Positions 5,377 through 38,978 of a stretch of DNA of 57,718 nt are shown here, piece after piece. The DNA comes from Patescibacteria group bacterium (GTDB lineage Bacteria; Patescibacteriota; Doudnabacteria; UBA920). Under the pieces are notes generated by a model. It made no database searches and had not been told where the DNA came from. It worked only from the letters and a program-made list of their open reading frames with translations. The stretch lies in assembly GCA_013387205.1 (NCBI GenBank), contig WARV01000007.1:1-57718 (forward strand), given 5' to 3'. A program made the position numbers and the translations under genes. Positions within the stretch are counted from its first letter, which is position 1, and the number at the start of each line of letters is the position of its first letter.

Positions 5377-5442
5377 ATCCGGATATACGGATACCTACGG
5401 ATATTCTTAGAAGCTAATTTGTAGTTATCCGTATATCCGGAT
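5377..5442. promoter_or_regulatory. Candidate operator: 17-bp perfect inverted repeat with extra TACGGATA boxes upstream of the efflux operon
   Basis: atccggatatacggata (5377-5393) and tatccgtatatccggat (5426-5442) are exact reverse complements. An extra direct tacggata box sits at 5396-5403. The site is about 110 nt upstream of the MFP start. Confidence 0.4.
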
Positions 5443-5554
5443 GATATCTGTATGTCAGGATCGGAATAATCCGCGGCTTTTAAAAACTGCCATTTTATGT
5501 TATACTTATTTACTGAAATTCGTAGTTTTGAAATCAACAATTAAACAAACATAT

Positions 5555-7120
5555 ATGGAAGATTTTTCGTCTTACGCCAAACACCATAAATTTATCATGG
5601 GTATTTTGGCTGTGATAGTAATTTTAGCCACGGCCGTGGGGGCAAGGCTTAATGGCAAAAACAAGCAGACAGAGCTCCAAAACCAGACAGTCAAAGTTTC
5701 TTTGGTTTCTGCCAAGGATTACATGAAGAGCCGCGGGATAGTTTCAGCCAATGGCACGGTTGAATCGCTGGAACAAGCTGAATTGCGCAGCCAGTTTTCC
5801 GCGCCGGTCTCTAAAATTTATACGCAAATCGGCAAGCAAGTCAGCGCCGGGCAAGTTTTAGTTACTTTGCAGAATAGCGATATCTCAGCACAGCTGGCCC
5901 AGACCCAGGCTTTGCTTAAGGCTGCACAGGCCAGGTTGGATGAAATGAAAAAAGGCTTGCGCACCGAAGAATTAGATTTGCTTGAAACCCAGATGAACGC
6001 TGCCAAACAGGCTTTGGCAGACACCAAGGCTCAGCAGGACACGGCAGTTGCCAGCGCTTTAAGCAACTTGCTTAACGCGGGGCTGTCGGCAATGCCCAGC
6101 AGCGGCAATACAGGATCTTCAAATCCGGCAATTTCCGGGTCTTACACTGGCACCGAACGCGGCCAGTATAAAATCAGCCTTTATGCGACAGGCAGCGGGA
6201 TAAGATTCCAGGCTTCCGGATTAGAAAGCGCGGAAGGCGAAGTTTCCGCCACGCCTATTAAGATGGGCAGTAAAGGGCTTTACATCCAATTTCCTTCCAC
6301 CAACATGCCAACCAACAATACCTGGACCGTTGATATTCCAAATACCCAGGCAGCAGGATATACCGCTTTAAACAGCGCTTACCAGTCGACTTTGCAGGGA
6401 AGGGAAACTGCGGTTAATGCGGCAACTAATGCCTTAAGCGCGGCCCAAAAACAATACGATTTAAAACTGGCCGGAGCATCTAACGAACAAATTAAAGCCC
6501 AGGAAGCTGCGGTTGAGCAGGCTGAGGCAAATGTGAAGACTGTTGCCGCGCAACTGGAAAAGACCGTCATCCGTTCGCCAATAAAAGGCACGGTATCGGT
6601 TTTATCCGTAAAATACGGGGAACTCGTCAGCCCGGGGCAGCTCGTGGCTTCTGTCGTCAACAAAGGCGGCTTGCAGGTTAAAGCTTACATCAGCGATTAT
6701 GATTTGCCATACGTGGCCGAAGGCGCGGAAGTGAAAATTAACGATACCGCCACAGGCACTGTTGCCAGGATGGCTACCAGCGTGGATCCAAGGACTAAAA
6801 ATGTAGAAGTCCAGGTCGTGGTAAGTGATCCGGAAAATTCCGGGCTAGTTGCCGGCCAGAACGCTTCCATAAAAATTTCCGCCAAAGAAAATTCTGACGG
6901 GGGAATGCTGTTTTTGCTGCCTCTCCAGGCTGTCAAAGTTTCCAGTTCCGGAGCTTCGGTTTTCACGGTTAACGATGATAACACCGTAACGGAACGTCAG
7001 GTCACTTTGGGTTCGGTTTCCGGAGAATTCGTGGAAATAAAAAGCGGTATGGATCCGGAAATGAAAATCGTCCCCGCCGTAAGCGAGCTTAAAGACGGAC
7101 AGAAAGTGAACGTACAATAA
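5555..7120 (+). CDS. Efflux periplasmic adaptor (HlyD/AcrA/MacA membrane-fusion family) with an inserted beta-rich domain
   Basis: N-terminal TM (ILAVIVILATAVG), lipoyl-like VSAGQVLVTLQN, a long coiled coil, and IRSPIKGTVSVLSVKYGELVSPGQ. ATG 5555 gives a sensible N-terminus. The track start 5441 lies inside the upstream inverted repeat. Confidence 0.85.
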   Translation: MEDFSSYAKHHKFIMGILAVIVILATAVGARLNGKNKQTELQNQTVKVSLVSAKDYMKSRGIVSANGTVESLEQAELRSQFSAPVSKIYTQIGKQVSAGQVLVTLQNSDISAQLAQTQALLKAAQARLDEMKKGLRTEELDLLETQMNAAKQALADTKAQQDTAVASALSNLLNAGLSAMPSSGNTGSSNPAISGSYTGTERGQYKISLYATGSGIRFQASGLESAEGEVSATPIKMGSKGLYIQFPSTNMPTNNTWTVDIPNTQAAGYTALNSAYQSTLQGRETAVNAATNALSAAQKQYDLKLAGASNEQIKAQEAAVEQAEANVKTVAAQLEKTVIRSPIKGTVSVLSVKYGELVSPGQLVASVVNKGGLQVKAYISDYDLPYVAEGAEVKINDTATGTVARMATSVDPRTKNVEVQVVVSDPENSGLVAGQNASIKISAKENSDGGMLFLLPLQAVKVSSSGASVFTVNDDNTVTERQVTLGSVSGEFVEIKSGMDPEMKIVPAVSELKDGQKVNVQ

Positions 7121-7132
7121 ATATATAAAACA

Positions 7133-10100
7133 ATGGATATAACCGAACAAAATCAAAACCCCCAAACAACCGTAAAAACTTCCGACCAGCGCTATTTGGA
7201 CAAATTAGAGTTTAATCCGGAACTCAGGAAAACCTGGCTGAATTTTTTCGTGTCAAATTTCCGTGTGGTTATTTTACTGATTATCTTGGTCAGCGCGGCA
7301 GGTCTTTATTCTTTTTTCAAGTTGCCGCGCGAATCCAATCCGGAAGTAAAAATTCCAATTGCCGTTGTAACCACTGTTTACCCGGGAGCCAGTCCGGCTG
7401 ACGTTGAAGAACTGGTCACCAAAAAAATTGAGACGAAAATCTCAGGCTTAAAAGGCATAGACAAAGTCACCTCCACTTCCGCCAACTCCTATTCGGCTGT
7501 AGTGGTAGAATTCGACGCCAAAGAAGACTTGAAAGATTCCATTAGGAGCCTGCGCGACAAGGTTACGGATGCCAAACGCGACCTTCCGGCAGAAGCAAAA
7601 GACCCGGTTGTCTCGGAAATTTCTTTGGATGACCAGCCGGTCCTGACTTTGGTTCTAACCGGCCCTTACGATGGCTACACCATGCGCCAGTACGGCGAAA
7701 CTTTAAAAGACGAACTGGAAAAAATCCCTGGTGTCAGGGAAGTTAGTATTAACGGGGGAGATGAAAAAGAGTTTGCGGTGGAGTATGACCCTGACAAGCT
7801 TTTGTATTACGGAATTTCCGCTGACCAGGCCAACCAGGCCGTTGCCGCGACCAATTTGGGATTTCCTTCCGGAAATTTTGACGGCGAAAAGTTTGTTTAC
7901 CCCATAAGGACAGATTCTAAAGTTTACTCAGCCGAAGACATCGGCAATATTGCGATATCCCATACCGATGCCGGAGGCGTGGTCTTCTTGAAAGATTTGG
8001 CCAAGGTTTCCGAAAGCGTGATAAAAAAATCTACCGTCTCCAGGCTGTCCATCTCCGGCGACAAGCCGCAATCCGCAGTCACTTTAAGCGTGGTTAAAAG
8101 GTCAGGCAGTTCCATTTTGGATACGGTTGACCAGGCCAAAAAAACGGCCGATGCCACTGTAGCGTCGTTTGCCCCGGGGATTAAATATGACGCGACCATG
8201 GATATGGCAAAATTCGTCAGGCGTGATTTTGACCAGCTGACCCACGACTTCATTTTAACTTTGCTTTTGGTGTTCGGGATTTTGTTTGTAATTGTCGGGC
8301 TCAAGGAAGCATTTGTGGCAGGCTTGGCCATTCCTTTAACTTTCTTCGTCACCTTTACTGCGCTAAAAATAATCGGAATTTCCTTGAACTTCCTGTCGCT
8401 GTTTTCTTTAATTTTGGCATTAGGCCTTTTGGTTGATGACGCCATTGTCGTGGTTTCTGCCACCAAGCAATATTTGAAGTCCGGAAAATTCACTCCGGAA
8501 GAAGCCGTGCTTTTGGTGCTTAACGATTTCAAGGTCGTTTTGACCACCACAACGCTCACTACGGTTTGGGCGTTTTTGCCGCTGCTGTTTTCCACGGGGA
8601 TAATGGGCGAATACTTAAAATCCATTCCTATTACCGTATCCATTACTTTAATCGGCTCCCTTTTGGTGGCTTTGATGATCAACCATCCTTTGGCCGCGGT
8701 CTTAGAACGCATCCGCTTGACCAGGAGATTCTTCTGGCTGGTGGAAATTTTAGTTTTGGTTTTTGCCGGAATATTTTTCTATTATGGCGAATGGATGGGA
8801 TATGTCATGGGAACCATTTTAACCGCCAGTCTGGCTTGGGCCATGTGGTGGTATGAAAAGGGCGGCCATAGGGTTTTGGTTGAAAATGAAGTTTTGTCCC
8901 ATGCCGAATGGGGCAGCGACGAGCTGATAAAAAAGAAGCTGCAGGAGCAATCCAGCCATAAAAACCCGTCTTTAACCAGCCGGCTCATGCACGGGGTTGT
9001 GCATTTTGACAGAGTTTTGCCGATTTACGAAAAGTATCTGCGCAAAGTGATATCCACGAAAAAACAGAGAAGGTGGGTTTTGGGAATTGTCACGCTTTTG
9101 TTTATTTTAGCGGCGGCTATGCCTGCTTTCGGCATTGTCAAAAGCGAATTTTTTCCTCCCTCAGACAGCGATTATGTTTACGTGGATATACGCACGCCTG
9201 TCGGCCAAAAACTTTCGGAAACCGATTTGGCCACCAGGAAAGTGGAAGAAAAACTTTTGGATTACCCTGAGATCGCCAATTTTTCTACCATTGTCGGCCA
9301 TCCCGGACCAATGTCCCAAAGCAGCAGGAACCAGACTAACCTGGCTTCAATTACTATTACTTTAAAGGACAAGAAAATCAGGAAAATAAAATCTTACGAT
9401 TTCGCGAACAGGCTCAGGAGGGAATTACCCAGTTTCGATAATGCTACTGTAACTATATCCGCCCCGGAAGGCGGGCCGCCTGCAGGAAGCGCGTTTGAAG
9501 CCAGGATAAAAGGGGACGACCTCGTTAAGCTCGACAAAATCGCCAGGGACTTGGAGCCGAAACTGGCTTCCGTTCCGGGTGTGGTTAACGTGGATATTTC
9601 CCTTAAGGAGAGTTCGCCCGAATACACTTTTTCTTTGGATCCGGTTAAGCTGGAGCAGAATTATTTGAACGCAGCCTATGTCGGTTCAACTTTGCGCATG
9701 GCTATTTCCGGTTCGGATGTTTCCAGCGTGGTGACCGGCGGCAAGGAAATAAAAATCGTCGGCCGCTTTGACGAATACAGGATACCAAAACTGGAAGACG
9801 TGCAGAATTTGCAGATTTTGAATTTGCGCAAGCAGCCTGTGTTCTTAAAAGATGTGGCAAAAATAGAACTGAAGCCTTCGGTGGATTCCATCACCCGCAT
9901 TGACCAAAAGCGCACGGTCTTGCTTTCTTCGGGGGCAGGCGCAGGAACCAACTCCAACCTGATTTTGGCAGATTTCAAAAAGAACATAGCGGATTACCAG
10001 CTGCCTTCCGGCTATAGTATTGTCTATGGCGGACAAAATGAGACCAACCAGGAGTCCGTGGTCTCGGTCATTCGGGCCATGGTTATTGCCATGGTGTTAA

Positions 10101-10546
10101 TAGTGGCAACGCTCATTGTGCAGTTTAACTCTTTCCGCAAAGCCTTTATGGTTTTAGTAACTATTCCTTTGGCGCTTATCGGCGTGTTCTTCGGCATGGC
10201 TTTGCTTAACGTGCACTTGAGCTTTCCGGGACTCATTGGAGTTTTGGCTTTGTTCGGGATTGTGGTGAAAAATGCTATCATCTTGGTAGACAAAATTAAC
10301 CTGAACATAAAAAGCGGCATTCCGTTTTTCGATTCAGTGGTAGATGCCGGCAAGTCCAGGATGGAAGCCATCTTCATCACTTCCATCTGTACAATTTTCG
10401 GTATTTTGCCCATCACTTTGTCCAACGACATGTGGCGGGCCTTGGGCAGTGCTGTGATTTTCGGGCTCATGCTGTCATCTTTCCTGACCTTATTCATTAT
10501 CCCGACCCTTTACGTGGCCTGGATTAAAGAAGACGAGAAGTTCTAG
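7133..10546 (+). CDS. RND-family efflux transporter (AcrB/AcrD/AcrF-like), 1137 aa
   Basis: Two large extracytoplasmic loops flanked by TM bundles. Motifs GLLVDDAIVVV and GIVVKNAIILVD. Starts 13 nt after the adaptor gene. Confidence 0.9.
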   Translation: MDITEQNQNPQTTVKTSDQRYLDKLEFNPELRKTWLNFFVSNFRVVILLIILVSAAGLYSFFKLPRESNPEVKIPIAVVTTVYPGASPADVEELVTKKIETKISGLKGIDKVTSTSANSYSAVVVEFDAKEDLKDSIRSLRDKVTDAKRDLPAEAKDPVVSEISLDDQPVLTLVLTGPYDGYTMRQYGETLKDELEKIPGVREVSINGGDEKEFAVEYDPDKLLYYGISADQANQAVAATNLGFPSGNFDGEKFVYPIRTDSKVYSAEDIGNIAISHTDAGGVVFLKDLAKVSESVIKKSTVSRLSISGDKPQSAVTLSVVKRSGSSILDTVDQAKKTADATVASFAPGIKYDATMDMAKFVRRDFDQLTHDFILTLLLVFGILFVIVGLKEAFVAGLAIPLTFFVTFTALKIIGISLNFLSLFSLILALGLLVDDAIVVVSATKQYLKSGKFTPEEAVLLVLNDFKVVLTTTTLTTVWAFLPLLFSTGIMGEYLKSIPITVSITLIGSLLVALMINHPLAAVLERIRLTRRFFWLVEILVLVFAGIFFYYGEWMGYVMGTILTASLAWAMWWYEKGGHRVLVENEVLSHAEWGSDELIKKKLQEQSSHKNPSLTSRLMHGVVHFDRVLPIYEKYLRKVISTKKQRRWVLGIVTLLFILAAAMPAFGIVKSEFFPPSDSDYVYVDIRTPVGQKLSETDLATRKVEEKLLDYPEIANFSTIVGHPGPMSQSSRNQTNLASITITLKDKKIRKIKSYDFANRLRRELPSFDNATVTISAPEGGPPAGSAFEARIKGDDLVKLDKIARDLEPKLASVPGVVNVDISLKESSPEYTFSLDPVKLEQNYLNAAYVGSTLRMAISGSDVSSVVTGGKEIKIVGRFDEYRIPKLEDVQNLQILNLRKQPVFLKDVAKIELKPSVDSITRIDQKRTVLLSSGAGAGTNSNLILADFKKNIADYQLPSGYSIVYGGQNETNQESVVSVIRAMVIAMVLIVATLIVQFNSFRKAFMVLVTIPLALIGVFFGMALLNVHLSFPGLIGVLALFGIVVKNAIILVDKINLNIKSGIPFFDSVVDAGKSRMEAIFITSICTIFGILPITLSNDMWRALGSAVIFGLMLSSFLTLFIIPTLYVAWIKEDEKF

Positions 10547-10572
10547 AATTTGCTTTAATTAAAGCAAAATTC
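10546..10572 (+). terminator. Hairpin after the RND gene
   Basis: gaatttgcttt-aatt-aaagcaaaattc, overlapping the stop codon. Confidence 0.5.
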
Positions 10573-10602
10573 CCAAAAATAGAAATCGCCAATGTTTATG
10601 GG

Positions 10603-10642
10603 CAAATGAATACCTCAACCGTACGGTTGAGGTATTCATTTG
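10603..10642. repeat. Perfect 40-nt palindrome, CTCAACCGTACGGTTGAG family
   Basis: caaatgaatacctcaaccgt|acggttgaggtattcatttg. Confidence 0.85.
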
Positions 10643-11038
10643 CTTGATTTTATTGGGGAAAATAAAACATAAGACAAACGCGAGGAAATTTTGTAATTGC
10701 CGTTACAAGCTTCAAATGATATGATTCTTTTAAGGCTTATTATGAAAGGCCTGAAACCTGCCGCCAGCCCGCTACGGGTATGAGACCAGATAAAATGAGG
10801 AAGCGGAGCTTCCACTTTGATAAGGAAACTGCCCTGATGCTCCACTGCTTGCAGTGGAGTCAGTTTCATAATTTGCCAGATAAGAAGCCATGAAATATTT
10901 AAGCCATCATTTTGTATTAACTAAGGGATAATTTTTAAACTTGGTACGATAATGCCGGCAAACACGGTCCGATTTTAGTGCAAGTTTCGCCAAACTATTC
11001 AAATTAACCAGAGTGTTTAACAACAAGCTTTAAATAAA

Positions 11039-12745
11039 ATGAAAGAATTTTACGCTAAACATAAGAAAAAAATAATCATTGTTGCAGTCATCCTTGTTGC
11101 CGGCGGAATTTACTGGAAATTCTTTTACAAAAAAGCGGACGCGCAGGTCCGGTATGTTTTGGAAACCGCTTCAAAGCAAACCATTACCCAAGCCATCAGC
11201 GGCAGCGGCCAGGTTAAAGCCTTAAGCCAGCTGGATATTAAGCCTTTGGTTTCCGGAACATTGGTGCAAATGAAAGTTAAAGATGGCGACCAGGTTAAAG
11301 CAGGCCAAGTCTTGGCAGTGGTTGACCAAAGGAACGCCGCGGCTTCTTTGGCCCAGGCAAAAGCCAGCCTCGATTCGGCCGAGGCTAATTACCAGAAAGT
11401 CATCAGTGGTGCTACTAATCAGGAACTTGCCGTTAATCAACTTTCGGTCCAATCGGCCCAGAACGGTTTGGATAAAGCGAATAAGGATTTGGATTCAACA
11501 AAGCGCCAGCAGGACACTCTGGTGGGCAATGCTTACCGTAACATGTTAAATTCAGGCTTAGCCGCAACGCCTGGTTCCGGCAATACTGGCAGTTCGACCG
11601 TCACGGTTTCAGGCGCTTACATTGGCACAGACCAAGGATCTTACACAATCAGCATATATGCAACAGGAGGAGGTTTAAGGTTTTCTTATTCCGGTCTGGA
11701 AACCGGTGATGGCTTGGTTGACACTGTCCCTAAGCCGCTTGGAACCAAAGGATTGTACGTCCAGTTTTCTTCAACGAGTATTCCGGTAAATAATGTTTGG
11801 ACTGTATCTTTGCCAAATGTTACATCTTCCGGATATTTAAACAGCTATAATTCTTACCAATCCGCTTTGCAAAGCCGCCAGGACGCGATTGATAACGCCC
11901 AGCAGGCGATAGTGTCAGCGCAAAACAGCCTGGACCAGGCCAAAGCAAATCTTGCTTTAAAACAGGAACCGGCAACTGCTGACCAGATTGCTTCCGCCCA
12001 GGCCCAAGTCAGCAGCGCCAAAGCCCAGCTGCTTAACGCATCAACCGCTTATTCCAATACGATAATAACCGCGCCTTTCGACGGGGCCATTACCCAAGCG
12101 GACGCCAAAGTTGGGGACCAGGCCAGCCCTAGCACGGCAATTGCGGTTTTGCTGACTAACCAGAAAGTCGTGGAAATATCTTTGAACGAAGTTGATGTGG
12201 CCAAAGTGCAAGTCGGGCAAAAAGCCACTATCACGTTCGATGCATTGTCGGATTTGTCTTTAACCGGCCATATCACTCAAATCGACCTTGTTGGCACGGT
12301 CAGCCAGGGTGTCGTGTCTTATAACGTGCAGATTTCTTTAGACAACCAAGATGACAGGATAAAACCGGGTATGAGCGCCAATGCTAACATTATTTTGGAC
12401 GTAAAGACAGATGTGTTAGCCGTGCCTAATAGCGCGATAAAGACACTGGGCAATAATTCTTATGTGGAAGTTTTGGCAAATCCTCCGGCTAACGCAAGCG
12501 ACCCGTCTGGCGTTATAAGCGTCACCCCGCCGGTCCAGAAACCAGTGCAGATTGGCATGTCAAACGATGAAGTGACAGAAATAACAAGCGGCCTTAACGA
12601 AGGCGACAGCGTGGTGGTGCAAACCGTAAATCCAGCTGCAACCAAAACTACCCAAACCCAGTCGAGCGGAGGCTTTGGCCTTCCGGGCGTAGGAGGCGGC
12701 GGTAATTTTAACAGGGTAATAAGGAGCACAAGTACTGGCAGGTAA
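11039..12745 (+). CDS. Efflux periplasmic adaptor (MacA/HlyD family), paralogue of 5555-7120 with the same inserted domain
   Basis: N-terminal [14 protein letters not shown], coiled coil, [19 protein letters not shown], and a C-terminal Gly-rich tail. Confidence 0.85.
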
Positions 12746-12755
12746 TTTTCCTACC

Positions 12756-13457
12756 ATGATAAAAATCCAAAACATTTCAAAATTATATAAGAGCGGCAAT
12801 GGTATAGAAACTTTGGCGTTGAAAGACGTTAGTTTCAACATTAACGATGGGGAATTCGTGGCTATTATGGGGCCATCGGGCAGCGGCAAATCGACCTTAA
12901 TGCACATTTTGGGCGCACTTGATACGCCAACCAGCGGAAAATATTTTTTGGACGAAAAGGATGTTTCGCAGATGACGGAAAACGAGCTGGCGAAAATCCG
13001 CAGAGAGCAGATTGGTTTCGTCTTCCAGGCTTTCAATTTACTGCCGCGCGCGTCCGTGCTGAGGAATGTCACGCTGCCTTTAATGTATGCGGAAATACCA
13101 AAAACCAAGAGGCAGGAACAAGCGGTTAAATCCCTGCATATGGCCGGGCTTAACGAAACGCACTTCGGGCATTTTTCCAACCAGCTGTCCGGCGGACAGA
13201 TGCAGCGCGTGGCCATTGCCAGGGCTTTGGTAAATAATCCCAAATTGATTTTAGCCGACGAGCCGACCGGGAATTTGGATACGCAAACCGGAGAATTGGT
13301 TTTGGGATCTTTTCAGGATTTAAACGAGCACGGGCACACGATTGTCATAATTACCCACGAACTCGATGTAGCCGCGCATGCCAAGCGCATAATCCATATC
13401 AGGGACGGGCGGATGGTGAAGGATGAAATTAACACTAACCAAATAAAGTTGAAATAG
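12756..13457 (+). CDS. ABC transporter ATP-binding protein, MacB/LolD/FtsE type
   Basis: Walker [10 protein letters not shown], signature [15 protein letters not shown], Walker [14 protein letters not shown]-loop ITHE. Confidence 0.95.
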
Positions 13458-13458
13458 C

Positions 13459-14682
13459 ATGATTACTAGCGATTTAATCTCCGAGACATATTGGGCGCTT
13501 TCCGGCAATAAAATCAGGTCGGCTTTGACAATGCTTGGAATAATTATCGGCATTAGTTCGGTTATTGCCATGGTTTCCATTGGGCAGGGTGCAAAAAATA
13601 ATATTGAACAGAGCATCCAGTCTGTCGGTTCGAACTTGATTATTGTCATGCCTGGCGCGCAGCGGGGAGTCGGCGTGCAGATTTCAAGCGGCCGCGGCAG
13701 CGCGCAGACTTTAACGCAGGAGGACGCTAATGCGATTTCAGGCAGCGTCAGCTTGGCCCAAGCCGTGGCGCCGGAACTGTCCCGAAGATATCAGGTGACA
13801 ACCAAAGGAAAAAATACCAACACCCAGGTGACTGGCACTGTGCCGCAGTATCTGGAAGTCAGGAATATCCAGATTGGGCAGGGTAGCTTTATCACCGACC
13901 AGCAGTCAAAGAGCGCGGCTAAAGTTGCGGTCCTCGGGCCAACCACGCGCGATGACTTGTTTGGGGCTAACGCCAACGCCATTGGCCAGGATGTAAAAAT
14001 CAACAATATGGAATTTAAGGTTATTGGCATAACCCAAGCCAAAGGCGGCAGCGGGTTTAGTAATCCCGATGACGCAGTGTATATTCCTCTGGCCACTGCG
14101 CAAAGGTATTTGGCAGGGGATACTTATGTCAGCGACATAAGCGTAAAAGCGCAAAGCCAGCAAGTCATGGCAACTGTCCAGCAGCAAATTACGGATTTGC
14201 TTTTGTCACGCCATCATATCAGCAATCCGCAGCTGGCTGATTTTAACGTCATCAACCAGGCTGATATTGTCGCGGCAGCAGGATCGGTTACTAATACTTT
14301 CACTTTGCTGTTGGCGTCCATCGCCGGCATTAGCTTGCTTGTAGGCGGGATAGGGATTATGAACATGATGCTGACTACTGTCACTGAGCGTACCAGGGAA
14401 ATTGGCCTTCGCAAAGCTATTGGCGCGGAGAGCGGCGATATTAACAGGCAGTTTTTGGCCGAGGCGGTAATGCTTACCTTTTTGGGCGGAGTTGCAGGGG
14501 TGTTGTTCGGCTGGGTAATGTCCCTGATAATTTCTCATTTTTCCAGCTTACAGACATCAATATCATTTTCTTCAATCCTTTTAGCTTTCGGAGTTTCCGC
14601 TACCATTGGCATAGTGTTTGGATATTACCCTGCCAGGCGCGCTTCCAAGCTTAATCCGATAGAGGCGTTGAGATACGAATAA
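13459..14682 (+). CDS. ABC transporter permease, MacB/FtsX type
   Basis: N-terminal TM, an extracytoplasmic domain of about 220 aa, three C-terminal TMs, and TERTREIGLRKAIGA. Starts 2 nt after the ATPase stop. Confidence 0.9.
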   Translation: MITSDLISETYWALSGNKIRSALTMLGIIIGISSVIAMVSIGQGAKNNIEQSIQSVGSNLIIVMPGAQRGVGVQISSGRGSAQTLTQEDANAISGSVSLAQAVAPELSRRYQVTTKGKNTNTQVTGTVPQYLEVRNIQIGQGSFITDQQSKSAAKVAVLGPTTRDDLFGANANAIGQDVKINNMEFKVIGITQAKGGSGFSNPDDAVYIPLATAQRYLAGDTYVSDISVKAQSQQVMATVQQQITDLLLSRHHISNPQLADFNVINQADIVAAAGSVTNTFTLLLASIAGISLLVGGIGIMNMMLTTVTERTREIGLRKAIGAESGDINRQFLAEAVMLTFLGGVAGVLFGWVMSLIISHFSSLQTSISFSSILLAFGVSATIGIVFGYYPARRASKLNPIEALRYE

Positions 14683-24772: not shown

Positions 24773-25169
24773 GGGGATGACGGATTTTGACAGGACTTTG
24801 ACATTTTCCAATATGCAAGACGAGTAAGCCTTCACACCTCGTTAAAATTGTTAAGGCATCATAAATGCTACTACTGCATTTGAAAAAGTGAAGACTGCAT
24901 TGGCTAACGCCTTTGCTCCTTCCTTCGTCCTCGCTTAATTTAAGTGAAGACACTTGCCCCATTCTCCATCTCAAGAATGGATAAGCAAGCTTATCTGAGG
25001 TTGCAACTTAGGCGTTTGATTTACTCGCCAAAGCCAAGTATTCGTAAATCAACCTTAATGTTTTAGTCGTCAGTTACTAGCATTAGGGCACTTTTAGCTG
25101 ACTAATCTTGTGAACAATTGGGAGTTGAGAAGATCTTGGACGCGGGTTTAACTCCCGCCATCTCCACCA
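24773..25169 (+). ncRNA. ssrA: tmRNA (transfer-messenger RNA)
   Basis: 5' GGGGAUGACGG pairs with 3' CCAUCUCC-ACCA, including the G3:U wobble. T-arm GCGGG-UUUAACU-CCCGC. The internal tag frame ends ..ANAFAPSFVLA-TAA (stop 24936-24938). Confidence 0.95.
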
Positions 25170-27878: not shown

Positions 27879-30800
27879 ATGAACGAACAAATAATTTATA
27901 GAGGCTCAGAATGGAGAAAATGGGACTTACATATCCACACTCCAGCATCCTTCCACTGGAATGGTGGTAAAAAATTTTTAGAAGCAGACCAGGGTGAGCA
28001 AGAACAAATTCTTCAAAAAATGGTCGATGCGATAAATAGTTCAGATGTCGCTGTTTTTGCAATGACAGACTATTGGACTTTCGACGGATATCTTAAATTA
28101 AAAGATTTTGTAAAAAGAAATAATATAAAGTTAGACAAAACCGTTTTTCCTGGAATGGAGCTTAGAGTTGAAGCCCCCGTAAACTACAGACTAAATATTC
28201 AAGTAATTCTTTCTGATGAGCTTACCCAACAGCAATTACAGGATTTTAAGTCGAAATTAAAGATAGCGAGTATTAATAGAAATTTATCCGACGATGCTTT
28301 AAAAGATTTTGCAAGAAGCCTTGATGACAGTAAAGCAAAAGTTTGTGGATTTGGTTCCGTTTCTACATTAAGTGACATTCAATTGCTCCAATTGGGAGCA
28401 AAGACAGCAGAAGTGACCAAGGAATCGTTATGTAAAGACGCCTTTGAAGCCATCCCCGCGTATAGCGGTTACATTTTATTGCCTTATGACACTTCTGATG
28501 GTTTAAAAAACCTGGATTGGACTACTCATCCACACGATGATAATTATTTTATGCAATCCGCGGATTTGTTTGAATCACGTAACGATGAAACAGTCGACTT
28601 ATTTTTGTGTAGAACTACCGATAAAAATAAAAACTTTATTAAAAATTTTGTAAAGACAATAGGTGGTGAGCCGAAGCCAGTGGTATGCGGTAGCGATGCT
28701 CACAAAATTGAAGATTACGGTAAGTATCCTAATGGTAGAGTTACTTGGATAAAGGCAGATACTACATTTTTAGGATTAAGCCAGGTTATAAATGAACCTG
28801 CGGACAGGGCATATGTTGGCACACTTCCAGATAAATTAGTTGAGGTAAATAACCACAAATCAAAGTATATTGACTCAATCAAAATAACAAACACTCACGC
28901 CAGCGCTTCACCTTCTTGGTTTAGTAATGAGTTACCACTTAATAATGGTTTAGTAGCTGTGATTGGTAAGAAAGGAAATGGAAAAAGCGCGCTTGCTGAT
29001 ATAATAAGTCTTTGTGGGGACAGCAAGGTTAGCCCTGTGGAATACTCCTTTCTGAAACCTAATAAATTTAGAAAGCGCGGGTTGGCGCGCAATTATGAGG
29101 CCACATTAAATTGGCTTGATAGTCAAAAATCAAAAAAGAATCTTGATGAAGATGTTCAGATGGCAACGTCTGTTGAGAAAGTTAAATATTTACCTCAACA
29201 ATATGTTGAAAACATTTGCAATGAAGACGGAGTAAGCACCTTATTCCAGCAAGAAATTGATAAGGTAATCTTTTCTTACGTTCCAGAAGAAAGCCGATTA
29301 GGAACAAGGAGCCTCGCGGAACTCATTAAAATTAAGACTGAGTCGGTTGATAGTTCTCTTTTAACTGCGCGTGCGGATTTGCATAGAATCAATGAACGCG
29401 TTACTTCTTTGGAAGATAAGGAAAATCCAGAATATCTTGAGTCGCTAAACAAAAAGCTGGAAGGGAAAAATCAAGATTTAAAAAATTTATCCAAGCCAAA
29501 AGCTATAAAAAAACCTAAAACTACTTTAAGCAAAGTAAAAGAGAATAAAATCAACAGACTTACGTCCGCAATCTTGAAAGTTAACGGTCAGATTGATAAT
29601 GCTCGCGAAGAATTGAAAAATGTAAATAACAAACTCCACAAACTAAATAGAATTATTGATAAAATCTCAAATTTAAAAGAAGACATAGCTGGGTTAATTG
29701 AAACATTTAAAGAAGACGCAATAGAGCTTTCAATTGACTTATCTAAGGTAATTAATTTAAAAATTTCGGAAGCAGGTTTAATTACAAAGCAAGAAGGCTT
29801 ATTAACAGAAAAAGAAAAATTAGACAATAAGTTAGAACAGAATAATCCTAAATCAAAGGTAAGCCTTTTAAATAACAAAACAAAATTAGAGTCCCAATTA
29901 GAAAGCATCACTGAGACTCTTGGCGCAGACCAGAAATTATATGAACAGTATCAAAAAGAGCTAAAACTATTTGAAGAAAGGGAAAATGCAATAGAAGGTA
30001 AAAAAGGCGACACCAGTTTGGAAACCATCGCTGGTCTTGAAACTGAAATAGATTTTGTTAAAAATAAACTGAGTAGTGCGTTGCAAGAGCAGTATAGAAA
30101 ACGTGGCGATGCCCAAAAAAGATTATTTTTAGAAATTGAAAAAAAGATAGCTTTCTACCAAGAGGTTTACACCCCGCTTGTGCACTTCATAAAAAGTGAA
30201 GAAAAAACACAAAAAGAATCAGGGAGTGTATTAAATTTTAGTGCTGGGTTGATTTTTGATAAACAAAAATTTATTACAAACTTCTTTTCATTTATAAACC
30301 AAGGCAAGGATGGTAGCTTTCAAACTGTAGTAGGTGGCCAAAAAATACTCAATAATATTATAGAAAAATTTGATTTAACGAAAAAAGATGACGTTGGCAA
30401 ATTTGTTGATGATGTTATTGACCACCTAAAAAATGATAAAACCCAAATAACACCAAAGGCCAATCTTATAAAATCCCAGCTCAAAAAAGACCAGGTATCA
30501 TTCTACGATTTTCTGTTTGGTTTAGACTATCTGGGTGTTAAGTATAAAATACTTTTTAACGACAAAGACTTAAATGCGAATGAGTTTTCTCCTGGTGAGA
30601 AAGGAGCGTTGTTACTAATATTTTATTTACTTATTGATAAAGACAACGTGCCGCTGGTAATTGACCAACCAGAAGAAAATTTAGACAATGAGTCAGTGTA
30701 TACCTTACTTGTCCCTTATATCAAAAAAGCAAAGAACAGAAGGCAAATTATAGCAATTACTCACAATCCTAACCTTGCGGTTGTTTGTGATGCTGAACAG

Positions 30801-31046
30801 GTTGTTTGTGCTGTAATGGATAAAAAGAAAAATGAGATTAGATATACTTCTGGAAGCATAGAAGACCCTGCTACAAATAAAAAAATTGTAGATATTTTGG
30901 AAGGAACACTGCCTGCTTTCACGGTTAGAGATAGAAAGTATATCAGGAAGAAAATTAACGGTTCCAAACGAAAGAACTCTATACAGTTCGATACCAGCGA
31001 TTTAGCAATTGCTAAACTTCTTAAACAGGCAGAACTAAAACCCTGA
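27879..31046 (+). CDS. PHP-domain phosphoesterase fused to a Rad50/SMC-like coiled-coil ABC ATPase (Ppl-like defence candidate)
   Basis: PHP motifs WDLHIHTP, AMTDYW, GMELRV, CGSDAHK. Walker A VIGKKGNGKSAL, Q-loop YLPQQ, a coiled coil of about 300 aa, signature-like FSPGEKGAL, Walker B PLVIDQPEENLD, H-loop AITHNPNL. Confidence 0.8.
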   Translation: MNEQIIYRGSEWRKWDLHIHTPASFHWNGGKKFLEADQGEQEQILQKMVDAINSSDVAVFAMTDYWTFDGYLKLKDFVKRNNIKLDKTVFPGMELRVEAPVNYRLNIQVILSDELTQQQLQDFKSKLKIASINRNLSDDALKDFARSLDDSKAKVCGFGSVSTLSDIQLLQLGAKTAEVTKESLCKDAFEAIPAYSGYILLPYDTSDGLKNLDWTTHPHDDNYFMQSADLFESRNDETVDLFLCRTTDKNKNFIKNFVKTIGGEPKPVVCGSDAHKIEDYGKYPNGRVTWIKADTTFLGLSQVINEPADRAYVGTLPDKLVEVNNHKSKYIDSIKITNTHASASPSWFSNELPLNNGLVAVIGKKGNGKSALADIISLCGDSKVSPVEYSFLKPNKFRKRGLARNYEATLNWLDSQKSKKNLDEDVQMATSVEKVKYLPQQYVENICNEDGVSTLFQQEIDKVIFSYVPEESRLGTRSLAELIKIKTESVDSSLLTARADLHRINERVTSLEDKENPEYLESLNKKLEGKNQDLKNLSKPKAIKKPKTTLSKVKENKINRLTSAILKVNGQIDNAREELKNVNNKLHKLNRIIDKISNLKEDIAGLIETFKEDAIELSIDLSKVINLKISEAGLITKQEGLLTEKEKLDNKLEQNNPKSKVSLLNNKTKLESQLESITETLGADQKLYEQYQKELKLFEERENAIEGKKGDTSLETIAGLETEIDFVKNKLSSALQEQYRKRGDAQKRLFLEIEKKIAFYQEVYTPLVHFIKSEEKTQKESGSVLNFSAGLIFDKQKFITNFFSFINQGKDGSFQTVVGGQKILNNIIEKFDLTKKDDVGKFVDDVIDHLKNDKTQITPKANLIKSQLKKDQVSFYDFLFGLDYLGVKYKILFNDKDLNANEFSPGEKGALLLIFYLLIDKDNVPLVIDQPEENLDNESVYTLLVPYIKKAKNRRQIIAITHNPNLAVVCDAEQVVCAVMDKKKNEIRYTSGSIEDPATNKKIVDILEGTLPAFTVRDRKYIRKKINGSKRKNSIQFDTSDLAIAKLLKQAELKP

Positions 31047-31144: not shown

Positions 31145-31176
31145 ACCACCCTTCGATAAACTCAGGGTGGTTTTTG
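31145..31176 (+). terminator. Hairpin terminator whose loop carries a CCCTTCGATAAACTCAGGG motif copy
   Basis: accaccct..agggtggt followed by ttttt. The motif is at 31149-31167. Confidence 0.65.
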
Positions 31177-31221: not shown

Positions 31222-31233
31222 GTGTGCTATAAT
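31222..31233 (+). promoter_or_regulatory. Extended -10 promoter of the riboswitch transcript
   Basis: TGTGCTATAAT, with TATAAT at 31228-31233. There is no good -35. Confidence 0.45.
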
Positions 31234-31249
31234 ATTTTTACAACTTTAT

Positions 31250-31440
31250 ACGATTAGTTCCCCCCAAGCGTGCGGGGGTTGGCCAGGGAATCCGGTTAGA
31301 TTCCGGAACTGTGCCGCAACTGTAAAATCCCTGCTTAGGCAGGGAATGAGTCAGATTGCTGGCTAGCTAATTGTACGTCGTCCTTCGCTTTCCGAGCAGG
31401 AAGTGGGGGATTTAAGGTTGTATCCACAACAGAAGAAGGG
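31250..31440 (+). promoter_or_regulatory. Cobalamin (B12) riboswitch
   Basis: GCCAGGGAAUCCGGUUAGAUUCCGGAACUGUGCCGCAACUGUAA matches the conserved AGGGAA.CCGGUGAAAAUCCGG..CUG.CCCGCAACUGUAA core. It is preceded by a CCCCC..GGGGG hairpin. A B12-box-like GAGUCAGAUUGCUGGC follows, in which CUGGC can pair with upstream GCCAG. Confidence 0.75.
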
Positions 31441-31444
31441 AAAA

Positions 31445-31876
31445 ATGAAACGCAGAACTCTGCTGAGCGTGTTTTTTTGCAGTCCCGTCCTGGCGGCTGT
31501 TCATTCCGTCAGTCAGGTGTTAAATGACGGCAGTCTTTACCAGTCCGGTTACCGGAACGGCTACCCTTTTAACTCGACAGTTAAGGTTGGCTCCGATGCC
31601 AGCGTGGCTAAGTACGAACTCAACCTTACCTGCATGCGGGCAAATACGGTAGAAGGAATGCTCCGCGCCGCCGGATTCGAGCTGGGGATAAAGAACGACT
31701 TTTCCAGCCTGCCGGGACAAGCGCTGATAAACGTAGTAGAGGATGTAGCCGGAAGTTTCAACATTCTGGTTAACGGCCAATTGTTTTTGTTTGACAGCGC
31801 ATCCACCTATAAAGTGGCAGCTGGCCAAAAAATCACAGTCCGCCTCGCCGCTCCCGGCACCATGGTTCCCAAATAG
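31445..31876 (+). CDS. Riboswitch-controlled secreted protein (143 aa), possibly a DUF4430 / transcobalamin-beta-like B12 binder
   Basis: Purine-rich RBS-like GAAGGG 5 nt before ATG 31445. Signal peptide MKRRTLLSVFFCSPVLAAVHS. The C-terminal half TVEGMLRAAGFEL..GQALINVVEDVAG.SFNILVNGQ..SASTYKVAAGQKITVRL resembles my recollection of the DUF4430 pattern (..L...G.......G.fi.sI.G....W.y.VNG.....a..y.v..GD.I.f.y). Confidence 0.7.
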   Translation: MKRRTLLSVFFCSPVLAAVHSVSQVLNDGSLYQSGYRNGYPFNSTVKVGSDASVAKYELNLTCMRANTVEGMLRAAGFELGIKNDFSSLPGQALINVVEDVAGSFNILVNGQLFLFDSASTYKVAAGQKITVRLAAPGTMVPK

Positions 31877-31940
31877 CCCGAACGGGAAAATGCGAGTAAA
31901 TTTAGCCACTGCCTTGCTCTGTTTTCTGCCCAAACCTGAG

Positions 31941-31975
31941 CCGCCTTGATTTCCATATCAAGGCGGTTTCGTTTT
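31941..31975 (+). terminator. Rho-independent terminator
   Basis: ccgccttgat-ttccat-atcaaggcgg followed by tttcgtttt. Confidence 0.75.
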
Positions 31976-32006: not shown

Positions 32007-32042
32007 AACGGCTAAATCCTAAAAATAGGCGTTTTAGCCGTT
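32007..32042. repeat. AACGGCTAAA-family hairpin
   Basis: aacggctaaatcc-taaaaata-ggcgttttagccgtt. Confidence 0.75.
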
Positions 32043-38546: not shown

Positions 38547-38978
38547 TTAGGTTAATTTTCTAATCTCTTTTTTCGCTTCCTTCTTTTTTATGTATTCCCG
38601 CTTGTCGATTTTTTTGCGCGCTTTGCCCAGGCCGATTTTAATTTTAACCAGTCCTTTGGGCGTAGTAAAAATTTCTAAAGGGATAATAACCAAGCCTTTT
38701 TCCTTGCCAGCCATTTGGCCCAGCTCGCGCTTGGTCAGTAAAAGTTTTCGGCTGCGGGTAGGGTCGTAAGATTCATTCGGCGCGTATTTGTAATGGCCAA
38801 TATGCGCGTTTACCAAAAAAGCGCCGGACGGGCTGACTGAAACATAACTGCCGGTTAAGGAAACATTGCCGGATTTGGTGGATTTTACTTCCGGTCCGGA
38901 TAGTACCATCCCCGCAATAAAACTATCTTTAATATCGTAGTCGTAACTGGCGCGCGAGTTTTTTACGAGTGTCTTCAT
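38547..38978 (-). CDS. smpB: SsrA-binding protein
   Basis: KNSRASYDYDIKDSFIAGMVLSGPEVKS..LLLTKRELGQM..GLVIIPLEIF.. and a basic C-terminal tail. Confidence 0.95.
   Translation of the reverse strand: MKTLVKNSRASYDYDIKDSFIAGMVLSGPEVKSTKSGNVSLTGSYVSVSPSGAFLVNAHIGHYKYAPNESYDPTRSRKLLLTKRELGQMAGKEKGLVIIPLEIFTTPKGLVKIKIGLGKARKKIDKREYIKKKEAKKEIRKLT

Follow-up and report, generated by a model that had tools for sequence, protein, structure and literature searches.

The stretch of DNA analysed here, 57,718 nt of the Patescibacteria contig WARV01000007.1 (the window; all coordinates are those of its forward strand), carries a compact cassette in which an extended -10 promoter, a cobalamin (vitamin B12) riboswitch, a single gene coding for the 143-aa protein P0001, and a terminator follow one another. 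A sequence-only reading of this DNA had proposed that the riboswitch controls just this one small secreted protein, and the cassette is indeed monocistronic and self-contained; all of the sequence features listed in that reading are present, with minor shifts in coordinates. The layout of the cassette and its immediate borders is as follows.

31146..31175, + strand: hairpin CCACCCT/AGGGTGG, then TTTTT, lying 3' of a TrlF-family ATPase gene (read from the sequence)
31225-31233, + strand: extended -10 promoter TGCTATAAT (TGnTATAAT; read from the sequence)
31239..31380, + strand: cobalamin riboswitch aptamer (RF00174 match; covariation in homologous leaders)
31380..31411, + strand: P13 hairpin (folds; helix 6 of the covariation analysis)
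31411..31421, + strand: U-rich tract after P13, TTTAAGGTTGT
31432-31440, + strand: purine-rich ribosome-binding site (RBS) GAAGAAGGG, 4 nt 5' of the ATG, aligning with the AAGGAG-type sites of homologues
31445-31876, + strand: open reading frame (ORF) P0001, 143 aa, ATG at 31445, member of an unannotated small family
31938-31969, + strand: 13-pair stem of an intrinsic terminator, then a T-run, the feature extending to 31977 (terminator scan)

The promoter and the RBS-like GAAGGG picked out by the sequence-only reading both stand, the latter as part of the purine-rich site at 31432-31440. The promoter has no recognisable -35, which accounts for its absence from the list of a sigma-70 consensus scan; transcription is predicted to start at ~31239-31240, and the same extended -10 recurs ~7 nt 5' of the conserved TACAAC leader start at two homologous loci, L005 and L006 (L001-L067 denote loci of relatives). 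The ORF listing extends the P0001 frame 5' to a GTG at 31403; the ATG chosen earlier is the correct start, as homologues align from the same M-x-R-R start. The strong terminator is also real, although it sits beyond the end coordinate given to the cassette (31876). With the hairpin and T-run at 31146-31175, it makes the cassette look transcriptionally self-contained. The terminator scan did not list that upstream hairpin (its loop is 11 nt), which from its sequence probably insulates the cassette from transcription entering upstream. The claim that no transporter is co-transcribed holds within the window.

A cobalamin riboswitch ahead of a single gene

A cmsearch run with the Rfam model RF00174, which had been named as the check on the riboswitch call, matches 31239-31380 (+) over the full-length model (positions 1-189) with 33.7 bits against a gathering score of 31.5 (E = 7e-5 over the whole window, 1.2e-6 locally). 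The call is thus upheld by a narrow margin. It is the sole cis-regulatory Rfam match in the 57.7 kb, the only other match above threshold being the transfer-messenger RNA (tmRNA). The conserved core GGGAA..CCGG..CUGUGCCGCAACUGUAA (31286-31325) and the B12-box-like GAGTCAGATTGCTGGC (31348-31363), both noted from the sequence alone, lie inside the RF00174 alignment. The aptamer comprises the following elements.

31249-31257/31367-31375, + strand: P1
31259-31279, + strand: P2 hairpin
31282-31286/31359-31363, + strand: GCCAG/CTGGC helix
31292-31306, + strand: P4
31309-31320, + strand: P5/L5
31328-31345, + strand: short P6 hairpin
31348-31363, + strand: B12 box

The riboswitch is genuine despite the narrow margin, because seven homologous leaders align with it and several of these score well above threshold. 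Best scores of the leaders at other loci are given here.

L002 leader: RF01482, 74.8 bits
L008 leader: RF01482, 63.1 bits
L013 leader: RF01482, 57.5 bits
L006 leader: RF01482, 55.2 bits
L012 leader: RF01482, 51.4 bits
L005 leader: RF00174, 46.5 bits
L003/L004 leader: RF00174, 38 bits

We aligned the window leader with the seven homologous leaders, which come from other assemblies, from promoter to start codon. The consensus structure, derived from this same alignment, has 29 pairs, 16 of which show compensatory changes on both sides, and its helices pair in 92% of cells compared with 36-51% once the 3' partners are displaced by 1-3 columns; in 500 shuffles its covariation score was never reached. 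The core and B12 box are invariant over the first six aligned leaders and conserved in all eight.

P13 lies directly 3' of P1, has compensatory changes in five of its eight pairs, and presents an invariant CGAGCA in its loop (L13, 31392-31400); the RF01482 model, as aligned for the L002 leader, covers this hairpin. The leaders thereby resemble the riboswitches with a P13 and an L5-L13 kissing loop (RF00174/RF01482, clan CL00101), with which they have in common the aptamer core, the B12 box, and a P13 with a conserved loop. Homologous leaders reach 51-75 bits on RF01482, whereas the window leader scores best on RF00174, which it just passes. Its P6 is a plain 7-bp hairpin of 17 nt, compared with 64 nt in the Rfam model, and its true RBS lies ~20 nt 3' of P13 rather than inside it. 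The suggestion that tccttc (31381-31386) sequesters the RBS does not survive: this segment is instead the 5' arm of P13, conserved and covarying in the eight leaders, and we reject a free anti-RBS role for it since it is paired within P13.

A U-rich tract follows P13 in all homologous leaders (for example, GGGAUUUUUGUUUUUU in L012 and GGGAAUUUUGUUUU in L001), from which we infer that P13 acts as an intrinsic terminator when stabilised by ligand. With sufficient intracellular cobalamin, ligand binding would dock the P13 loop on the aptamer through the L5-L13 kissing interaction, and the docked P13, stabilised before the U-rich tract, would switch expression off, most likely by premature termination. 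Several properties of the window leader weigh against such B12-dependent repression: its riboswitch score is borderline, the L5-L13 complementarity amounts to ~3-4 bp by eye, its post-P13 tract UUUAAGGUUGU is the weakest of the set, with four U in the first 8 nt after P13 where homologues have 5-7, and the terminator scan makes no call at its P13 and U-tract. Because of the weak tract and the missing terminator call, the strength of regulation in this genome is uncertain.

We also note that in the four closest leaders (L003, L006, L008, and L005) a conserved AUG lies ~7 nt past the G-rich 3' arm of P13 (L003 4973-4996, L006 4970-4990, L008 4955-4975, and L005 from 290). In three of the four it opens a mini-ORF of 6-7 codons (MLANFKE*, MLERSP*, MFITKE*), and the mini-ORFs end at or within the RBS of the main gene, an arrangement that hints at translational coupling. 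The window has AGG in place of this AUG, and a UUG at 31418 is in frame with the P0001 ORF.

The window riboswitch could have decayed so that it no longer regulates, leaving the gene constitutive or silent. Its score is the lowest above threshold among the family leaders (38-75 bits elsewhere), its U-tract is interrupted (UUUAAGG), it is without the post-P13 AUG of its four closest relatives, and one family member, at L011, exists without a riboswitch. Yet the window leader keeps every invariant position of the eight-leader alignment, including CTGTGCCGCAACTGT, the B12 box core, and the CGAGCA loop; its P1, P3, P4, P6, and P13 all pair, and its fold energy has a z-score of -3.4 relative to shuffles. 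We consider decay very improbable, and continue with a riboswitch that would repress its gene when B12 is plentiful.

A predicted exported protein and its resemblance to DUF4430

The P0001 ORF is a real gene and belongs to a conserved family. Searches of Pfam, NCBIfam, and PDB sequences with P0001 found no meaningful match, the only database matches being DUF348 (E 0.022) and chance matches to GhpA and CylK, and a word-indexed homology search returned the query alone. An exhaustive HMMER search of 1.84 billion representatives recovered 13 small homologues of 142-167 aa (E 2e-31 to 2e-4, 28-49% identity), and the named ones are from Candidatus Doudnabacteria. Two long proteins that the single-sequence query matched via four repeats, P0014 and P0015, were rejected as spurious; P0014 scores ~2 bits per repeat on the family profile and P0015 is not reported by it. 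Two segments of the protein are of concern here.

31445..31498, + strand: signal peptide, residues 1-18, MKRR then a hydrophobic stretch ending at A18 (from alignments; the first modelled strand begins at residue 20)
31640..31846, + strand: C-terminal half, residues ~66-134, with a helix, a beta-hairpin, and more strands (hhalign; AlphaFold2 order; topology of PMC1796856)

Every family member carries an RR pair in its signal, commonly followed by x-F-L (RRxFL), and a small residue just before the first strand (A18 in P0001). The true start of the L008 member is MKNRRMF, and the L067 member begins MNRRQLF. The family signal conforms to an R-R-x-F-L-type twin-arginine translocation (Tat) motif with a hydrophobic stretch, and its n-region is short for Tat; neither TatA nor TatC is encoded in the 57.7-kb window. 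P0001 has no L-[AS]-[GA]-C lipobox, and the cysteine of its VFFC at residue 12 is not conserved in the family. From these signals, we predict that family members are exported via an N-terminal signal with an invariant twin arginine.

AlphaFold2 supplied with the family alignment models P0001 with a predicted local distance difference test (pLDDT) of 84 and a predicted template-modelling score (pTM) of 0.74; the single-sequence model (pLDDT 43) is unusable. The model has four N-terminal strands, one helix (residues 69-75), and five further strands. Its element order (two strands, helix, hairpin, three strands) fits the transcobalamin-like SLBB topology (PMC1796856), and the weak match to the ubiquitin-like DUF348 also suggests a beta-grasp.

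The sequence-only reading had likened the C-terminal half to DUF4430 and the transcobalamin beta-domain, a resemblance that fails at the Pfam level and is suggested at the profile-profile level. The Pfam scan with PF14478 that had been put forward as a check gives no match to P0001 at E <= 10, and P0001 is not a formal member of PF14478. In contrast, hhalign against a broad alignment of 75 DUF4430 sequences aligns 62 columns over the exact segment singled out earlier (residues 68-130), which begins at the helix, includes the VNG strand, and ends at the PGQ turn, with P = 3-6e-5 and a probability of 65-74%, which is below the usual confidence bar of 90-95%. The real alignment scores 34.2, compared with 9.6 for the reversed control and 5.6-14.4 for 26 valid column shuffles; four of the 30 shuffles scored ~130 over 2-11 terminal columns and were treated as numerical artefacts of gap-rich end columns. 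The best PDB sequence matches of the DUF4430 profile itself are transcobalamin-1 and an isolated 108-residue transcobalamin-2 beta-domain. Taking profile alignment and model together, the C-terminal half is probably a very divergent SLBB/DUF4430-type beta-grasp.

Family loci and their B12-related genes

Riboswitches scoring above the cut-off lie directly 5' of the family gene at eight distinct loci (the window, L002, L003/L004, L005, L006, L008, L012, and L013); L007, L009, L010, and L014 are too short upstream to judge. This direct pairing of riboswitch and gene recurs across homologues with no more than 30-49% identity. A divergent member, P0008 (L011 1-830; 167 aa with a C-terminal extension), is preceded by an ordinary promoter region, and among the loci with sufficient upstream DNA it is the one without a riboswitch.

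At L003 and L006 there is a common gene order of riboswitch and family gene, nrdR, and nrdJ. The L003 reductase passes the model for adenosylcobalamin (AdoCbl)-dependent NrdJ, TIGR02504, with 587 bits against 400, and 3' of it are genes for a CobA-like adenosyltransferase, a DUF4430 lipoprotein, and a DUF6580 protein. The NrdJ proteins are 76% identical between the two genomes, and their family proteins are each <50% identical to P0001. At L001 and L067, both from Candidatus Doudnabacteria, the family gene is the third of a riboswitch-led three-gene operon (L001 2059-5456, L067 3245-6077). The first gene codes for a 519-601-aa protein combining an alpha/alpha toroid with a DUF4430 domain above the Pfam cut-off, which is the transcobalamin architecture, and the second for a 164-173-aa Ig-like protein, with a C-terminal membrane anchor seen in the L067 copy. 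The L067 riboswitch was found as a match to the riboswitch DNA pattern, and that of L001 scores 28 bits, below the cut-off, with the same P13 motif. An MsbA-like ABC half-transporter gene lies just 5' of the riboswitch in L001.

This comparative context strongly backs a B12-related role for the small exported protein. In our view, which we hold at slightly better than even confidence, the cassette is B12-repressed and makes an exported SLBB-like protein that would bind or relay corrinoids at the cell surface. The co-operonic arrangement at L001 and L067, with toroid-DUF4430 and small Ig-like proteins, allows another role within B12 acquisition: an adaptor that binds no corrinoid and either docks a transcobalamin-like binder, a DUF4430 lipoprotein, or the importer, or aids ligand release. 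A canonical DUF4430 lipoprotein is encoded only 5 kb away in L003, so that the family coexists with recognised binders instead of replacing them. Family members do not keep most of the DUF4430 invariant residues, and extracellular SLBB proteins have been suggested to form surface complexes (PMC1796856). Against an adaptor, the family gene is the sole gene behind the riboswitch, with no co-transcribed partner, in the window and seven other distinct loci, and it is the ligand-facing helix-hairpin-strand core that resembles DUF4430. An adaptor is unlikely, and we retain the corrinoid-binding or relaying protein as the preferred reading.

Scanning genomes for the riboswitch-type pattern gave at least 120 loci, mostly in Patescibacteria, Chloroflexota, and Melainabacteria. 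DUF4430 is encoded by the first gene downstream in 18 of the 120 matches listed (13 small stand-alone proteins and five large transcobalamin-like ones), and among the matches listed a clear member of the new family occurs at one locus, in addition to the divergent L067 copy. Of the pattern scans of metagenome DNA for the leader, one was empty and the other gave two chance matches without a family or DUF4430 gene. A B12 riboswitch preceding a small secreted transcobalamin-like protein is thus a recurrent and already annotatable arrangement; what is new here is a rare, unannotated, and highly divergent family in the same riboswitch-DUF4430 niche.

The context of the cassette differs in each lineage, and none of the genes flanking it in the window recurs beside other family members. 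Upstream lies a gene (27879-31046, +) for a 1,055-aa TrlF-family AAA-like ATPase, which scores 637 bits on the NCBIfam model (cut-off 350) and matches the anti-phage protein Ppl more weakly. Downstream, a second perfect 10-bp inverted repeat, AACGGCTAAA/TTTAGCCGTT followed by TGTTTAT, is present at 32007-32042 (+) in the 400-nt non-coding stretch that separates the cassette terminator from the next gene, which codes for a 279-aa membrane protein with no family match. Elsewhere in the window are an efflux cluster (5441-14682, +) coding for an HlyD-type adaptor, an AcrB-family RND pump with an HMA-like segment, a second HlyD-type adaptor, and a MacB-type ABC pair, with cupredoxin and beta-lactamase-family genes 3' of it, and the tmRNA gene (24773-25169, +; 113 bits), whose partner SmpB is encoded 13 kb away (38547-38978, -).

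The cassette was said to be richer in GC than its surroundings, which is true locally (0.50-0.54, compared with 0.33-0.39 in the immediate flanks), although the contrast is inflated by the AT-rich gene upstream. The P0001 ORF has a GC content of 0.52 and a third-position GC content (GC3) of 0.60, compared with a window mean of 0.43 and 0.44-0.49 in the window's housekeeping genes. The TrlF gene, at 0.35 with GC3 of 0.30, is far more AT-rich than the window, accounts for much of the local contrast, and looks like an acquired defence-type gene. Family genes have 0.50-0.55 GC (GC3 0.55-0.62) in L002, L003, L006, L008, L013, L067, and the window, and the DNA around them 0.38-0.43 in most loci, an offset that could reflect codon selection or repeated transfer. 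We reject recent horizontal import of the cassette as judged by GC, because the local contrast comes mostly from the TrlF gene and because family genes are at 0.50-0.55 in most loci whatever their flanks.

A proposed role in B12 scavenging

We propose that B12 shortage switches on production of the protein, which would be exported by its twin-arginine-type N-terminal signal. The mature form, of ~125 aa, is predicted to have an N-terminal sheet of four strands and, in its C-terminal half, a transcobalamin-type beta-grasp (SLBB/DUF4430-like). It would bind corrinoids outside the cell, or relay them among surface binders towards an importer, as part of a B12-salvage system that would feed AdoCbl-dependent enzymes such as NrdJ. 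A narrower version, in which this is a Patescibacteria-specific minimal corrinoid-capture protein, a ~125-aa twin-arginine-exported lone B12 binder made only under B12 starvation, which would thus leave the cell free of ligand and pass B12 to an importer, is possible and more tentative, and we would not back it at even chances. An isolated transcobalamin beta-domain has been crystallised with corrinoids, which makes ligand binding by a lone domain plausible.

The closest known counterparts are the stand-alone DUF4430 (PF14478) proteins, the transcobalamin-like clade of the SLBB beta-grasp superfamily, which like P0001 are small and exported and whose genes come first, or stand alone, after this type of riboswitch. 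Their order of helix, hairpin, and strands fits that modelled for P0001, with an aligned V/I-N-G motif, and they have a predicted scavenging role (PMC1796856); the new family, like them, adjoins transcobalamin-like, NrdJ, and CobA-like genes. It differs in being undetected by the Pfam model, in its absence of most DUF4430 invariant residues, in an additional N-terminal sheet of four strands, which has conserved DGS and NGY motifs of its own, and in an RR-type signal where the Patescibacteria DUF4430 proteins have a LAAGC lipobox with a nearly invariant G-C. It also coexists with DUF4430 proteins in the same loci. Another counterpart is the beta-domain found in transcobalamin, intrinsic factor, and haptocorrin of animals (PDB 4kki, 5no0, 7qbg). 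Transcobalamin is among the Foldseek matches of the family model, although the new family lacks an alpha/alpha toroid in the same polypeptide, its sequence similarity is below significance, and the structural similarity is weak. The Bacteroides surface B12-binding lipoproteins BtuG, BtuH/DUF4465, and BtuJ share the concept: they are non-homologous extracellular binders in riboswitch-controlled uptake loci that relay cobamides to a transporter. They have unrelated folds and are outer-membrane lipoproteins working with the TonB-dependent BtuB, whereas no TonB-dependent BtuB-type transporter is linked to the new family here.

Beyond the leader, a number of observations count against a corrinoid-binding protein. 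PF14478 (gathering score 23.8 bits) is unmatched by all 14 family members at E <= 1, and the divergent L067 member gives no match either. Against a narrower set of 45 close Patescibacteria DUF4430 sequences, hhalign aligns the expected segment weakly (P = 0.015, probability 2.9%). Most of the invariant DUF4430 residues (W125, G137, A138, Y141, D147, and W151) are not conserved in the family. Whole-chain Foldseek searches of the PDB found no structure at E < 0.05, with transcobalamin (7qbg_C) at rank 6 (probability 0.87, template-modelling (TM) score 0.33, E 0.1, root-mean-square deviation 9.8). With a twin-arginine signal the protein would be exported already folded, which sits less easily with the capture of an external ligand. 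The L011 gene has no riboswitch in its 326 nt upstream, and the window holds no B12 enzyme or transporter and nothing else related to B12.

The absence of any significant sequence or structure match to a characterised B12 binder also fits an exported B12-starvation factor without a corrinoid role, for example one acting on a host or neighbour cell or binding some other soluble ligand. SLBB and beta-grasp domains bind many different ligands (PMC1796856), and the family occurs only in a lineage believed to live on other cells, its named members being Candidatus Doudnabacteria. However, the physically linked genes, for transcobalamin-like proteins, NrdJ, a CobA-like enzyme, and DUF4430 proteins, point specifically to cobalamin, and behind this riboswitch type the family gene takes the place that DUF4430 genes hold elsewhere. 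We regard such a factor as improbable. In the preferred reading, P0001 is probably a cell-surface B12-scavenging factor, which would be a plausible variation on a known theme.

Burroughs et al. (2007, PMC1796856) predicted that B12 is scavenged by secreted transcobalamin-like SLBB proteins, and that a further extracellular SLBB paralogue is often encoded in the operon. Scavenging by secreted transcobalamin-like domains behind B12 riboswitches thus dates from 2007, and the present family extends this theme without opening it. The riboswitch assigns a small, unannotated, and fast-evolving exported family to the B12 economy of the bacteria that carry it, and relatives with the family depend on an AdoCbl-dependent ribonucleotide reductase for their DNA precursors. 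Few features link an uncharacterised gene to a metabolite as dependably as a riboswitch does. Patescibacteria, whose genomes are tiny, are unable to make B12, and their route for acquiring it is poorly understood. If P0001 and its relatives bind corrinoids, they would be unusually small B12 binders that form a new branch of the transcobalamin-type beta-grasp. This would help annotation and might provide a compact module for binding B12. Should the more tentative reading as a lone capture protein be true, the family would supply a missing first step of B12 acquisition in bacteria with reduced genomes.

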